Shown: positions 7,150 to 11,309, numbered from the stretch's first letter. The stretch: DNA of 12,760 nt from a virus (UHGV-0172607), one strand, 5' to 3'. Program-made: numbers and translations. Notes: generated by a model from the letters alone, not told the origin.

Positions 7150-7701
7150 ATGAATCGCACATCCCTGATTAAATTAATTCATGTCGCCCGTCGTGATCTA
7201 CAACTCGACGATGACACTTACCGCGCCTTTCTGGTGCAGTGCACAGGCAAGACCAGTTGCCGCGAGCTGACTGTCGCACAACTGGAACAGGTGCTCGATG
7301 CCATGAAAGAGCGCGGTTTTAAGAAGCAGAAAAAACATCCCCGCCGTCGCTTTAAGGGGCATGTCACACCGCGCGAGAAGATTTACAAAATCTGGCAGCA
7401 GATGTTTCTTAACGGTTTCGTCTCCGATATCAGCGACGCTGCGCTGGACAAATACGTTGAGCGCCTGACAGCCAGACGTAATGGCGGACAGGGTGTTTCC
7501 ACGCTGGCATGGTGTCACGGGGAATCGTTGCAGATTGTGCTCGAAACGCTCAAACAGTGGCATATGCGCTGCATCCGGGAAGCCTTTGCCCGACATGGCG
7601 TGCCTTTACCTGTGAGCGAAACCGGGCGGGAGCTGCGCGGCTATGATGCACTGACCAGTGCATATGCCCGCGCACGAAACAGCGGGAGAATTGCTGTATG
7701 A
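7150..7701 (+). CDS. gemA: GemA-like host gene expression modulator (183 aa)
   Basis: ATG at 7150 with GGAGG RBS 7 nt upstream; the GTG at 7096 in the track is an extension. Lies immediately upstream of and overlapping the mor-like gene, as in Mu. Confidence 0.65.
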   Translation: MNRTSLIKLIHVARRDLQLDDDTYRAFLVQCTGKTSCRELTVAQLEQVLDAMKERGFKKQKKHPRRRFKGHVTPREKIYKIWQQMFLNGFVSDISDAALDKYVERLTARRNGGQGVSTLAWCHGESLQIVLETLKQWHMRCIREAFARHGVPLPVSETGRELRGYDALTSAYARARNSGRIAV

Positions 7702-8147
7702 AACAGATGAAAGAGCAGGATTTGTTCGAAGACCTTCGGGACGACAGCGTTCTGGAATATCTTCATGATTACCAGGAAAACACCGCTTATCCGGCGTTAC
7801 TTTCTGAACTGAACGCACTGCTGCGTAAAGAGCTGGCCCGGATTGGAGCAGACCCTGCCCATTCCCTTGAGCTGGTTGTGGCGATTTGTCGCCATATCGG
7901 CGGGATGCAGGTTTATGTTCCGAGGGGGAATATTCTGGAGAATCTTGTCCGGGATATGCGTATCTGGCGTGATTTTAACGGCCATAATATTCCTGAACTG
8001 GTTCAGTGTTACGGAGTGACGTATAAAACCGTCTACAAGGCCATCAAACGGATGCGACGTCTGGAACGTAATAAATACCAGCCGGATTTGTTTTACCCCT
8101 CCCCGAATCTGCCTCACCCCGTTCGTCGTCCACCACGACGCCCTTAA
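7698..8147 (+). CDS. mor: Mor/C-family transcription activator (149 aa) with Pro/Arg-rich C-terminal extension
   Basis: Start overlaps the gemA stop (ATGA). Core PALLSELNALLRKELARIGADPAHSLELVVAICRHIGGMQVYVPRG ... YGVTYKTVYKAIKRMRRL matches the Mor/C family as I recall it. Tail PSPNLPHPVRRPPRRP is extra. Confidence 0.75.
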   Translation: MKQMKEQDLFEDLRDDSVLEYLHDYQENTAYPALLSELNALLRKELARIGADPAHSLELVVAICRHIGGMQVYVPRGNILENLVRDMRIWRDFNGHNIPELVQCYGVTYKTVYKAIKRMRRLERNKYQPDLFYPSPNLPHPVRRPPRRP

Positions 8148-8154
8148 TCAATGA

Positions 8155-8178
8155 AGCCGGTAAATCCGGCTTTTTTTA
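8155..8178 (+). terminator. Intrinsic terminator after mor (AGCCGG-taaat-CCGGCT plus T7)
   Basis: Perfect 6-bp stem, 5-nt loop, followed directly by seven T; 8 bp after the mor stop. May double as a dyad within a middle promoter. Confidence 0.7.
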
Positions 8179-8193
8179 TGCCTCCGGCACCAT

Positions 8194-8220
8194 GAAGCAG
8201 ACCACGTTTAAATCTGCTTC
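8194..8220. promoter_or_regulatory. Perfect 8-bp inverted repeat GAAGCAGA-N11-TCTGCTTC 13 bp upstream of the muramidase start codon
   Basis: Arms 8194-8201 and 8213-8220 are exact reverse complements; lies in the 55-bp window between the terminator and the ATG at 8233. Candidate operator or 5' UTR structure. Confidence 0.35.
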
Positions 8221-8232
8221 ACAGGTGCTTTT

Positions 8233-9467: not shown

Positions 9468-10063
9468 CCCTTTCAGGCATCGCCTCTGTTCTGCTGAAAG
9501 CCGGGCCGGGGCTGATTCGTTCCGTCGGGCGCTGGTTTGGTGGCAGCACATCTGCCGCCGCTGACTCGGTGGCCGGTATGGTGGAAAGCGTCCGGGAAAG
9601 CCTGCCGGTGGCTGAACAGCAACGCATTCTGGAACAAAAACTGGTGATGCTGTCACCGGAGCAACTGATGCAGCTGGAAACCCTGAAAGTTCAGCTGCAA
9701 CAGCTGGAGGTGGAGCGGCAGAAGCTGGTGCTGGCTGACCAGCAGGCCGCACACCACGAACAGCAGGAAACCATCCGCAATGGTGACAACGCCACGGACA
9801 GCTATGTGCGCCAGACACGCCCGCTGCTGGCCCGCCTTTCCTGTTACAGCAGTCTGGCCTATGTGCTGTTGCTCTCCTGCGGCCAGATTGCCGGAGCCAT
9901 TGCCGGTGCCAGAGGTATCACGCTGCATATGCCATCACCGGACTGGGATATCACGCTGATGTTGCTTACCCCGGCGCTGGGCTATCTCGGTGTAAGAACC
10001 CTTGACGGCTTTGCCCGTTACAGCAAATCAAGCCGTCACAAAATGTCTGCGGGGCCGAAATGA
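9455..10063 (+). CDS. Holin-like protein with N-terminal coiled coil and C-terminal TM segments (3TM-holin-like, about 202 aa)
   Basis: GTG at 9455 preceded by GGAGG with 6-nt spacing. Gln/Leu-rich coiled coil (EQQRILEQKLVMLSPEQLMQLETLKVQLQQLEVERQKL), then TM segments LARLSCYSSLAYVLLLSCGQIAGAIAGA and WDITLMLLTPALGYLGV. The 9305 start in the track overlaps the previous gene and has no RBS. Confidence 0.5.
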   Translation: MDPLTLSGIASVLLKAGPGLIRSVGRWFGGSTSAAADSVAGMVESVRESLPVAEQQRILEQKLVMLSPEQLMQLETLKVQLQQLEVERQKLVLADQQAAHHEQQETIRNGDNATDSYVRQTRPLLARLSCYSSLAYVLLLSCGQIAGAIAGARGITLHMPSPDWDITLMLLTPALGYLGVRTLDGFARYSKSSRHKMSAGPK

Positions 10064-10287
10064 CCGACGAAATCGACCGCATCAGTGAAGTGGTTCTGAA
10101 CGAGCGTCAGAGCGTCGTTAAAGCCTGGCAGACACGGACAAAAGAAGCGCCCCACAGCCGGGGCTTCTGCAATGACTGCGGGAACGTTATTCCGGCACAG
10201 CGCCTTGCGGCGCTGCCGGATGTGGTGACCTGTATTGACTGTCAGCAGATGCGGGAACGCAGGAGGAAATCGTGTCCTGGGAAATGA
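10060..10287 (+). CDS. TraR/DksA-family C4 zinc-finger protein (75 aa)
   Basis: C-x2-C-x17-C-x2-C motif (CNDCGNVIPAQRLAALPDVVTCIDC) typical of the TraR/DksA C4 zinc finger; start overlaps the upstream stop (ATGA). Confidence 0.7.
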   Translation: MTDEIDRISEVVLNERQSVVKAWQTRTKEAPHSRGFCNDCGNVIPAQRLAALPDVVTCIDCQQMRERRRKSCPGK

Positions 10288-10577
10288 TCAGAGCCAACTG
10301 GCCCATTCTGTGGGCATTGCTGATGACAGGAATAAACCTGCTTCAGTTGATTCTGGCGAAGACCTACGTCAAACGCGAAGAGTTTGATTTGTTGCGTTCC
10401 CGTGTATCGGTGATGGAAAGCCAGGTGCATCAGCTACCTGATCGTGATGAGTTCCACCGCCTGCAACTGGATATCAGCAACCTGAGGGGAGAAATCAAGG
10501 AACTGGGGCCATCCATCCGCCAGGTATCCCGCATCAGCGATTTGTTATTAGAGAATGAGTTAAAGGAAAAAAATTAA
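10272..10577 (+). CDS. Small bitopic membrane protein with N-terminal TM and coiled coil (101 aa); possible spanin or lysis accessory protein
   Basis: GTG at 10272 preceded by AGGAGG with 5-nt spacing. TM WPILWALLMTGINLLQLILA followed by a heptad-like charged segment. Confidence 0.5.
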   Translation: MSWEMIRANWPILWALLMTGINLLQLILAKTYVKREEFDLLRSRVSVMESQVHQLPDRDEFHRLQLDISNLRGEIKELGPSIRQVSRISDLLLENELKEKN

Positions 10578-10870
10578 TGGCGATGAAAGAGATCCTCACT
10601 GAAGACCGTCGTCTGGTGTTGCTGCGTTCCCTGCTGGATTGTGGCGACAGCGCGAATGAATCCGTGTTGCAGACCTGCCTTCAGGCCTACGGTCATAAGG
10701 TATCCCGTGATGTGGTGCGCACCCAGCTTGCATGGCTGCGCGAGCAGGGGCTGGTTCGTCTGTCTGATGTGGGCGGCTGTTACGTGGCTGAAATCACCGG
10801 CAGCGGCGAGGATGTGGCAAACGGCCTGTCCAGCGTTCCGGGCGTTAAAAAACCCCGTGCGAGGGACTGA
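10577..10870 (+). CDS. Hypothetical protein with winged-helix-like fold (97 aa)
   Basis: ATG overlaps the upstream stop (TAATG) with AAAGGAAA upstream. Pattern RRLVLLRSLLDCGDSANESVLQTCLQAYGHKVSRDVVRTQLAWLREQGLV suggests a wHTH. Confidence 0.5.
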   Translation: MAMKEILTEDRRLVLLRSLLDCGDSANESVLQTCLQAYGHKVSRDVVRTQLAWLREQGLVRLSDVGGCYVAEITGSGEDVANGLSSVPGVKKPRARD

Positions 10871-10872
10871 GC

Positions 10873-11172
10873 ATGGCCCGAAAACTGAAGCCGTTAAGTC
10901 GCGGAGAACGGGCCGTCGTGCGGCAGCTGGCGTACTGCCTTGTGCTGGCAGATATCGAGCAAAACGCCATTGTCCGTGCATACGAAAAACATACAGGAAA
11001 GCCCTGGAACCCGGATGCACTGGATACCCCCATGAAACGTGCCCTGCGTTCATCACCGGCATGTGCGCGGCTGTGGAAGCTGCTGGGTAAGGATATCCGC
11101 TCCGTTCGCGAAGAAATATACGCCGGTCTGAAAACACCGGGAACTGAAGACGGGGGCTGTCGTGAACCGTAA
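10873..11172 (+). CDS. Hypothetical protein (99 aa) upstream of the small terminase candidate
   Basis: ATG at 10873 with GAGGGA RBS; no motif recognised. Confidence 0.5.
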   Translation: MARKLKPLSRGERAVVRQLAYCLVLADIEQNAIVRAYEKHTGKPWNPDALDTPMKRALRSSPACARLWKLLGKDIRSVREEIYAGLKTPGTEDGGCREP

Positions 11173-11309
11173 AAAGAATCCGATAAGTAAAGCGTCCCGT
11201 GATGAACTCCGCCGTCTGGCGCACAACCTGACATGGCAGGAAATCCAGAACGGCGCACTGAAATCTGCATACGAAAGTTTACAGCGTAGTGAGCAACAGG
11301 AGCGCACAC

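Follow-up and report, generated by a model that had tools for sequence, protein, structure and literature searches.

The 12,760-nucleotide stretch of viral DNA UHGV-0172607 (hereafter the window, meaning the whole stretch) makes up the left 12.7 kb of a Mu-like transposable prophage of Escherichia coli, which is probably functional. It encodes a single activator of the Mor/C family, Mor, which probably switches on the late operons directly. We put the probability of such a two-tier cascade, with early and late genes only as opposed to the three tiers of Mu, at about 75%. The reading is built on gene content, on a region behind mor that is homologous to the Mor-dependent promoter Pm of Mu, and on a second Mor-type box in front of the head genes of close relatives.

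A single activator gene of the Mor/C family

Three features of the window concern the activator.
7698-8147, plus strand: mor, the sole activator gene of the Mor/C family, 149 amino acids (Pfam PF08765, PHROG 532)
8079-8093, plus strand: codons for QPDLF, residues 128-132, identical to the motif of Mu C (sequence and alignment)
8094-8144, plus strand: Pro/Arg-rich tail of 17 amino acids, YPSPNLPHPVRRPPRRP (homologue comparison)

The encoded protein matches the Pfam family Mor (PF08765) with 101.9 bits at a cut-off of 24.9, residues 31-131 covering profile positions 3-107 of 107, and the PHROG family 532, labelled 'late transcriptional activator', with E = 5.9e-40. It is 62% identical to Mu Mor and 32% identical to Mu C, and its gene is overlapped by gemA as in Mu. 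A sequence alignment with both Mu proteins shows the invariant columns kept, GG-Q-Y-P-G and the helix TVYKAI-RMR among them. In its recognition helix, VTYKTVYKAIKRMRRL, the protein is almost the same as Mu Mor and unlike C, which fits a Mor-type box. Judged from the alignment, the window activator is an orthologue of Mor rather than of C.

Among complete genomes the best match is a 33-kb prophage of E. coli KFu019 (L003), which is 98% identical to the window over 7000-11400 and 96.5% identical over the whole window. The comparison also covered three further complete prophages (L005, L006 and L007, the last being Klebsiella phage Kp4866-3), ten partial enterobacterial loci from Pluralibacter, Raoultella, Klebsiella, Serratia, Kluyvera and Brenneria (L008-L017), four contigs encoding exactly the window's Mor (L021-L024) and the Muvirus Yersinia phage vB_YpM_5 (L025, MT374853).

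Searches for a second Mor/C gene returned none in the window or its C-less relatives. Queries with window Mor, Mu Mor and Mu C (tblastn, E<=10) found one locus each in the window and in L003. A hidden Markov model (HMM) of 89 members, built from 87 database homologues plus Mu Mor and Mu C, was run unfiltered on six-frame stop-to-stop segments of at least 30 amino acids. It found one match each in the window, L003, L005, L006 and L007, and two, Mor and C, in Mu as positive control. The ten partial loci carry one Mor/C gene each and no second. The order in Mu is mor, Pm, E18, E19, gp20, C, Plys, lys, gp23, gp24, gp25, gp26, gp27. Relative to it, the block gp20-C-Plys-lys-gp23 is missing from the window, and no C paralogue lies between mor and lys in the window or in 14 related loci. 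The original prediction, made from the window alone, had named one Mor-family gene with an unusual Pro/Arg-rich tail, followed by a strong terminator and a muramidase gene, with nothing resembling Mor or C among the downstream open reading frames (ORFs). All of this holds, and the lack of a second Mor/C gene extends to the rest of the prophage as represented by the four complete relatives. The contrast that it had drawn with Mu, where C is a second activator, is also correct, and Mu does not have the gene content of the window.

Sites for C are likewise not apparent. The C box CATAACCCC has no exact match in L003. Its seven one-mismatch matches there compare with about nine expected by chance by our own estimate, and only one of them adjoins an intergenic region, at the end of the major head gene. 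Neither CATAACCCC nor TTAT-N5-6-ATAA was seen at the upstream regions inspected; the regions in front of lys and gene I bear a Mor-type box instead.

A single activator gene had been regarded as a departure from the expected layout. Across a phage collection, tblastn with window Mor hit 71 records at 85 places. Two places were found only in 14 records of the Mu group (the Mu records, D108, SfMu, Mu_3F6, PhiR68_1 and five Yersinia phages), and a single place in the other 57 of the 71. The single-Mor layout is thus the common state, and it has been published for other Mu-like phages (PMC4553209), so that the layout is not unusual.

The end of the protein is distinctive in two respects. The motif QPDLF is reported as both the C-terminal clamp-binding motif of C and the family consensus, and the N-terminal counterpart is Qx[DE][LM]F (PMC12867686). 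Window Mor has QPDLF where Mu Mor reads QPSLL, and at its N-terminus EQDLF, in which only DLF is in register, like Mu Mor. It therefore carries predicted clamp-binding motifs, with an exact match at the C-terminus. Beyond the motif, the C-terminal sequence PSPNLPHPVRRPPRRP is real and is retained with substitutions in an E. coli/Salmonella subclade of proteins of 146-151 amino acids (P0001-P0011), and most other Mor homologues stop a few residues past Q-x-x-L-F without a Pro/Arg tail. A one-off frameshift as the source of the tail was considered and rejected, as the tail is kept across E. coli and Salmonella clusters.

A putative Pm-like promoter overlapping the terminator behind mor

Between the stop codon of mor and the start of lys, a gap of 85 bases, lie three features.
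8153-8179, plus strand: intrinsic terminator of the early operon, an 8-bp stem with a 5-nucleotide loop (8153-8173) followed by seven T
8150-8167, plus strand: putative Mor-type box, homologous to Mu Pm positions -51 to -34, with the core TGAAGCCGGTAAATCC at 8152-8167
8188-8193, plus strand: -10-like hexamer CACCAT, spaced from the box as TATCCT is in Mu Pm, with no -35 element

The terminator RNA folds with -16.3 kcal/mol (z = -2.9). Its left arm and loop carry the box TGAAGCCGGTAAATCC, which matches the Mu sequence TAAAGCCGGTTAATCC at 14 of 16 bases; allowing up to three mismatches, the window has two matches where 0.07 are expected. The Mu Pm region ACAGTAAAGCCGGTTAATCCGGCTTTTTTTACGTCCTCAATATCCTG and the window sequence TCAATGAAGCCGGTAAATCCGGCTTTTTTTATGCCTCCGGCACCATG align without gaps and are homologous. 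In Mu Pm, the Mor dyad extends from -51 to -36 and the Mor footprint from -56 to -36 (PMC4287176). The Mu start (+1) is at Mu 9224 and the -10 hexamer is TATCCT, as mapped from the permanganate-reactive positions in that study. By the same spacing, transcription in the window is predicted to start near 8200-8201. A promoter scan found no sigma-70 consensus promoter on the plus strand between 7600 and 11400, and in 14 of 14 lys-type promoters the -10-like hexamer has A at position 2 and T at position 6. Terminator and box overlap in the window, and the record of Mu annotates an equal overlap of terminator and Pm. Since the terminator carries the homologue of Mu's Mor-binding site, it would be part of the promoter. 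In the position of the box, the spacing of the -10 and the lack of a consensus promoter, the window has the sequence features expected of a Pm-type promoter, namely a Mor dyad centred near -43.5 and a -10 hexamer with neither a -35 nor an extended -10.

An inverted repeat occupies 8194-8220 of the window and the same place in all 11 lineages compared (L004-L016 and L025). It begins at the base right after the -10 hexamer and ends just 5' of the ribosome-binding site of the first gene. Its arms vary by lineage (GAAGCAG/CTGCTTC, GGAAG/CTTCC or GAGGAAAGTG/CACTTTCCTT), and its folding energies are only slightly more favorable than those of shuffled sequences (mean z = -1.26). A consensus fold of the lys leader across lineages predicted no pairs, the alignment being unable to cope with the length variation. 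A role of the repeat in RNA is uncertain, since its 5' arm precedes the mapped +1 in Mu.

The junction between mor and the terminator/box is variable in other lineages. A cargo ORF is inserted there in L005 (9115-9612; 165 amino acids with a signal-peptide-like N-terminus), L006 (8968-9291; a membrane protein of 107 amino acids) and L007 (7958-8290; 110 amino acids). The Mor proteins of these three prophages have 135-136 amino acids and no Pro/Arg tail; the window type has the tail and no cargo ORF. The cargo ORF separates mor from the box, and the box stays beside lys in all three.

Recurrence of the Mor-type box before the head genes

L003 has the same 16-mer at one further place, some 75 bases in front of head protease gene I. 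With up to two mismatches, 44 kb of L003 contain two matches where 0.01 are expected, and the two copies with their flanks agree over most of about 45 bases. Among the relatives overall the second box lies about 75-95 bases upstream of the head protease gene, which is the position of the C-dependent promoter PI in Mu. It is present upstream of gene I in L003, L005, L006 and L007, in nine of nine additional loci that reach gene I and in all four contigs encoding exactly the window's Mor. All ten additional loci share the gene order, a single Mor/C gene and a box 80-110 bases before the GH108 lysin. In its core, CCGCATACTGAC, the gene-I promoter is homologous to Mu PI (CCGCAAACTGAC), and a Mor-type box stands in place of Mu's C box CATAACCCC. 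The activator site thus appears to have been exchanged in a promoter that is otherwise homologous.

The two classes of box differ in what surrounds them. Lys-side copies always retain hairpin and T-run in full, which would be expected of sites that also terminate the early operon. Gene-I copies retain the core GAA(G/A)(C/G)CGGT(A/T)AATCC and in most lineages have no right arm and T-run (e.g. TGAAGCCGGTTAATCCACCTGCATCCCC in L006); both were lost in L006, L007, L011 and L013 and partly in L010, L012 and L017. In the family of the window itself, the gene-I copy is complete in hairpin and T-run. Since the cores at gene I are kept without the hairpin, the box is conserved for itself, and terminator function does not account for its conservation. 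Each class has a hexamer in which position 2 is A and position 6 is T, spaced from the box as in Mu Pm to within one base (CACCAT, CAAAAT, CACAAT and TAAATT beside lys; CATACT, CACACT and GACACT at gene I).

These comparisons bear on the idea that the repeated element is a mere intrinsic terminator at operon ends and that late genes are reached by read-through or antitermination from the early promoter, with no late activator site of their own. The lys-side copy is indeed a good terminator, and so, by its hairpin and T-run, would be the gene-I copy of the window's family. The conserved gene-I copies of L006, L007, L011 and L013 cannot terminate, the A2/T6 hexamer at fixed distance marks both classes, and in Mu the homologous sequence is where Mor leaves its footprint (PMC4287176). 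We regard a terminator-only role as highly improbable.

Genes behind the promoter

To establish the gene content, the listed ORFs were scanned against Pfam and PHROG and compared with Mu. The early genes are, in order, ner, transposase A, B, gam, gemA and mor. Behind mor, the lysis and packaging block runs up to gp27 and into the large terminase gene, of which the window has the start.
396-986, minus strand: repressor gene
5227-5751: gam
7096-7701: gemA
8233-8829, plus strand: GH108 muramidase (endolysin) with PG_binding_3 domain (Pfam), the first gene after the Pm-like promoter
8831-9082, plus strand: homologue of the Mu middle gene E18 (gp18), 69% identical to Mu E18
9057-9467, plus strand: hydrophobic protein of 136 amino acids at the position of Mu E19 (PHROG 12596 and 2121; called in L003 and L021)
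9455-10063, plus strand: protein of 202 amino acids, possibly a holin-like membrane protein (PHROG 1544; syntenic in L008-L017)
10060-10287, plus strand: TraR/DksA-type zinc-finger protein (Pfam PF01258, E = 7.3e-11; PHROG 54)
10272-10577, plus strand: DUF2730 protein of the Mu gp25 family (Pfam PF10805, E = 1.7e-30)
10577-10870, plus strand: winged-helix homologue of Mu gp26, 61% identical to Mu gp26
10873-11172 and 11162-11320, plus strand: two small paralogous ORFs of 99 and 52 amino acids (both PHROG 8988)
11310-11891, plus strand: gp27-type small terminase subunit (Pfam PF11985, E = 4.7e-54; 46% identical to Mu gp27), its start set by the gene calls in L003 and L021

The muramidase is 72.5% identical to the GH108 protein behind Pm in Yersinia phage vB_YpM_5. 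This phage has C and shares the junction of mor, Pm, GH108 and E18, so that by homology the window lysin would belong to a Mor-dependent middle operon. In vB_YpM_5 (L025 1774-3702) the GH108 lysin is located between Pm and E18, in place of E19. A Mu-type signal-arrest-release (SAR) endolysin is also found behind its Plys, which gives the phage two lysin genes under two different activators.

Membrane-protein genes had been predicted to follow the muramidase directly. The muramidase and two membrane or holin-like ORFs stand, and the ORF at 8831-9082, directly behind the muramidase gene, turned out to encode no membrane protein but the E18 homologue, on which PF26867 (Phage_Mu_gp18) is found in L021-L024. 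The 136-residue protein shows weak similarity to Mu E19. The 202-residue protein has a sub-threshold Pfam match to GTA_holin_3TM (E = 8.6e-4, 20.2 bits at a cut-off of 24.8) and stands where Mu has gp20, C, Plys, lys and gp23, this block being replaced by the 136- and 202-residue membrane-type proteins. Mu gp25 is known as 'releasin' (PMC9239132), and the Mu annotation names gp26 a winged helix-turn-helix protein. The two small ORFs have no Pfam match and no Mu counterpart. The shorter one aligns with the first 39 positions of the PHROG 8988 profile and thus looks like a truncated duplicate. In the Brenneria salicis locus (L017) there is no room for a small ORF between gp26 and gp27.

A replacement for C among the downstream genes

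A non-homologous small protein encoded downstream might have taken over the late role of C, leaving Mor to activate the first operon only. The original prediction had offered this, through a winged-helix or TraR-like protein, next to a single activator as its two options. Candidates are the TraR/DksA-like protein (10060-10287), the gp26-like protein (10577-10870) and the 99-residue ORF (10873-11172). Genes for TraR-like and gp26-like proteins occur in all ten C-less relatives L008-L017. Mu gp24, which occupies the TraR position, is not detectably a TraR homologue, which makes TraR specific to the C-less layout among the genomes compared; a simple equation of the TraR-like gene with Mu gp24 was dropped, as Pfam and PHROGs do not connect the two. 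The com-mom promoter, at which neither a Mor nor a C box was found (see below), would also suit another factor. The three candidates are encoded downstream of the Pm-like promoter, however, and so cannot be its first activators. The gp26 homologue coexists with C in Mu, the 99-residue ORF is absent from the C-less locus L017, and the head-gene promoter bears a Mor-type box, not a new motif. TraR/DksA-type proteins bind the secondary channel of RNA polymerase, without DNA sequence specificity, and give no promoter specificity. We consider a replacement of C improbable, though a helper role for the TraR-like protein may exist. The single-activator option is favored by the Pm homology behind mor, by the reappearance of the box in front of the head protease gene in all related genomes examined and by the Mor-type recognition helix.

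A probably intact prophage family

The missing block gp20-C-Plys-lys-gp23 could also mark a defective derivative of Mu in which C, Plys, lys and gp23 were deleted and late genes are no longer expressed. Yet the C-less layout is kept with intact ORFs in E. coli, Klebsiella, Raoultella, Serratia, Kluyvera, Pluralibacter and Brenneria. The family encodes an endolysin of its own and bears a Mor box before the head genes. The C-less relatives known from Pasteurellaceae are inducible phages (PMC4553209), and insertion sites vary, with up to four copies in one genome. A decayed Mu is hardly credible on these grounds.

Matches to related prophages start at window positions 54-56. The left end of the Mu-type prophage therefore lies at about 55, and the first ~55 bases are host flank. 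The insertion sites of the family are unrelated (NZ_CP041425.1 of E. coli STEC388, L003, L005, L006 and L021) and include a site between ygbI and ltnD, one splitting an alanine racemase gene and one within a tail gene of a lambdoid prophage. Up to four places are occupied in a single genome. Varied sites and multiple copies are consistent with recent transposition, and the family looks active because the sites vary, a gene is split and a genome can hold up to four copies.

A two-tier cascade and the points that weigh against it

We infer Mor binding and Mor dependence, as well as the start and extent of each transcript, in the following way. The early operon (ner, A, B through gemA and mor) would end at the hairpin at 8153-8179. 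Mor made from it would bind the box overlapping the left arm and loop of that hairpin (8150-8167) and recruit sigma-70 RNA polymerase to a promoter with a weak -10 (CACCAT) and no -35, as at Mu Pm. The resulting transcript would carry the endolysin, the E18 homologue, the membrane or holin-like proteins, the TraR-like, DUF2730 and gp26-type proteins and the terminase genes. The middle and lys operons of Mu would in effect be fused, and C would not be needed. About 75 bp upstream of the head protease gene, the second Mor-type box would take the place of the C box of PI, and the same Mor would turn on the head genes and, probably by read-through, the tail genes too.

Several points weigh against direct activation of all late operons by Mor. 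The case is made by sequence comparison alone. CACCAT is a weak -10 with three of six consensus positions, and the TraR-like protein of all C-less relatives could contribute. The second box lies outside the window, and its presence in this copy of the prophage is deduced from relatives that are 97-99% identical. A matrix scan found no convincing Mor-type box for a tail promoter, and the sole syntenic candidate falls on conserved GK(T/S)VN codons and may be due to coding constraint. In L003 and L005, the region in front of com-mom showed neither a Mor box nor a C box when read by eye, a pattern search for TTAT-N5-6-ATAA not being part of that reading. This leaves at least one late unit with no identified activator site.

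The syntenic candidate in the tail region is a weaker matrix match within the baseplate V gene (L003 28305, L005 28323, L006 28693 and L007 27151; 13.8-20.3 bits), with a good -10 (TATTAT or CATTAT) 19 bases later. It could be an internal promoter of the tail genes or just the conserved codons. A third dyad, GCCGGAAACCCGGC, at 26716 of L003 in gene N near the position of PP in Mu, was rejected as a chance match, since its flanks are unlike those of the other two copies and it has neither a T-run nor a -10 at the right distance.

The com-mom genes are present in the C-less prophages L003 (33679-34675) and L005 (35010-35965), with Mom 96.6% and Com 71% identical to the Mu proteins. The upstream region keeps a cluster of GATC sites, like Mu, and reads GATTAAATACCCCCAGCCCTCCGGGCGG at the position of Mu's C site, which contains neither a C box of the form TTAT-N6-ATAA nor a Mor-type box.

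A more elaborate version would make the window activator a functional Mor-C hybrid, a Mor-type DNA binder that acquired QPDLF and the Pro/Arg tail. Acting from Mor-type boxes that displaced the C boxes of the head promoter, this protein would link the whole of late transcription to replication in a single step, with the mom operon served by a third, still unrecognised site or factor. We regard this hybrid as doubtful.

Comparison with other Mu-like phages

The window shares with Mu Pm and Mor an orthologous activator, a box matching at 14 of 16 bases, the terminator overlap, the -10 distance, the lack of a -35 and the E18 homologue behind the promoter. Mu Pm drives only E18, E19, gp20 and C, whereas the window promoter would serve the endolysin first and continue into lysis and packaging genes without C, and its box is reused at the head genes. 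The activators differ in that window Mor has the QPDLF motif of C and the additional Pro/Arg tail. Mu C and its late promoters resemble the system in the inferred task, the switching on of lysis and head operons from promoters without a -35, in the homologous core of PI and gene-I promoter and in the shared C-terminal QPDLF. The difference is that the window family has no C gene and that its Mor is 32% identical to C.

In the Mannheimia phages 3927AP2 and phiMhaMu2 and in SuMu of Haemophilus parasuis, lys directly follows mor, and the phages have no middle genes such as C (Niu et al. 2015, PMC4553209). Their lys is of the GH108/PG_binding_3 type and the phages are inducible, and no activator sites were proposed (PMC4553209). 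The window agrees with these Pasteurellaceae phages in the GH108 and PG_binding_3 lysin directly after mor and in the lack of C. It differs in that its family keeps the E18 homologue; relatives of the window carry com-mom, which 3927AP2 does not have. Yersinia phage vB_YpM_5 has the same junction of mor, Pm, GH108 and E18 as the window, but retains gp20, C, Plys and the Mu SAR endolysin and is still three-tiered. What is added here are the paired putative Mor-type boxes before lys and gene I and the apparent site swap at PI, which we did not find stated in the Mu-like literature cited.

The sampled enterobacterial relatives appear to use Mor alone. The textbook three-step cascade of Mu, from Mor to C to late genes, would then be a speciality of Mu and its closest relatives. 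Concrete candidate promoter sites come out of the comparison, with a box in front of lys and another in front of the head protease gene. In annotation, single Mor genes of this kind are fairly labelled 'late transcriptional activator'.

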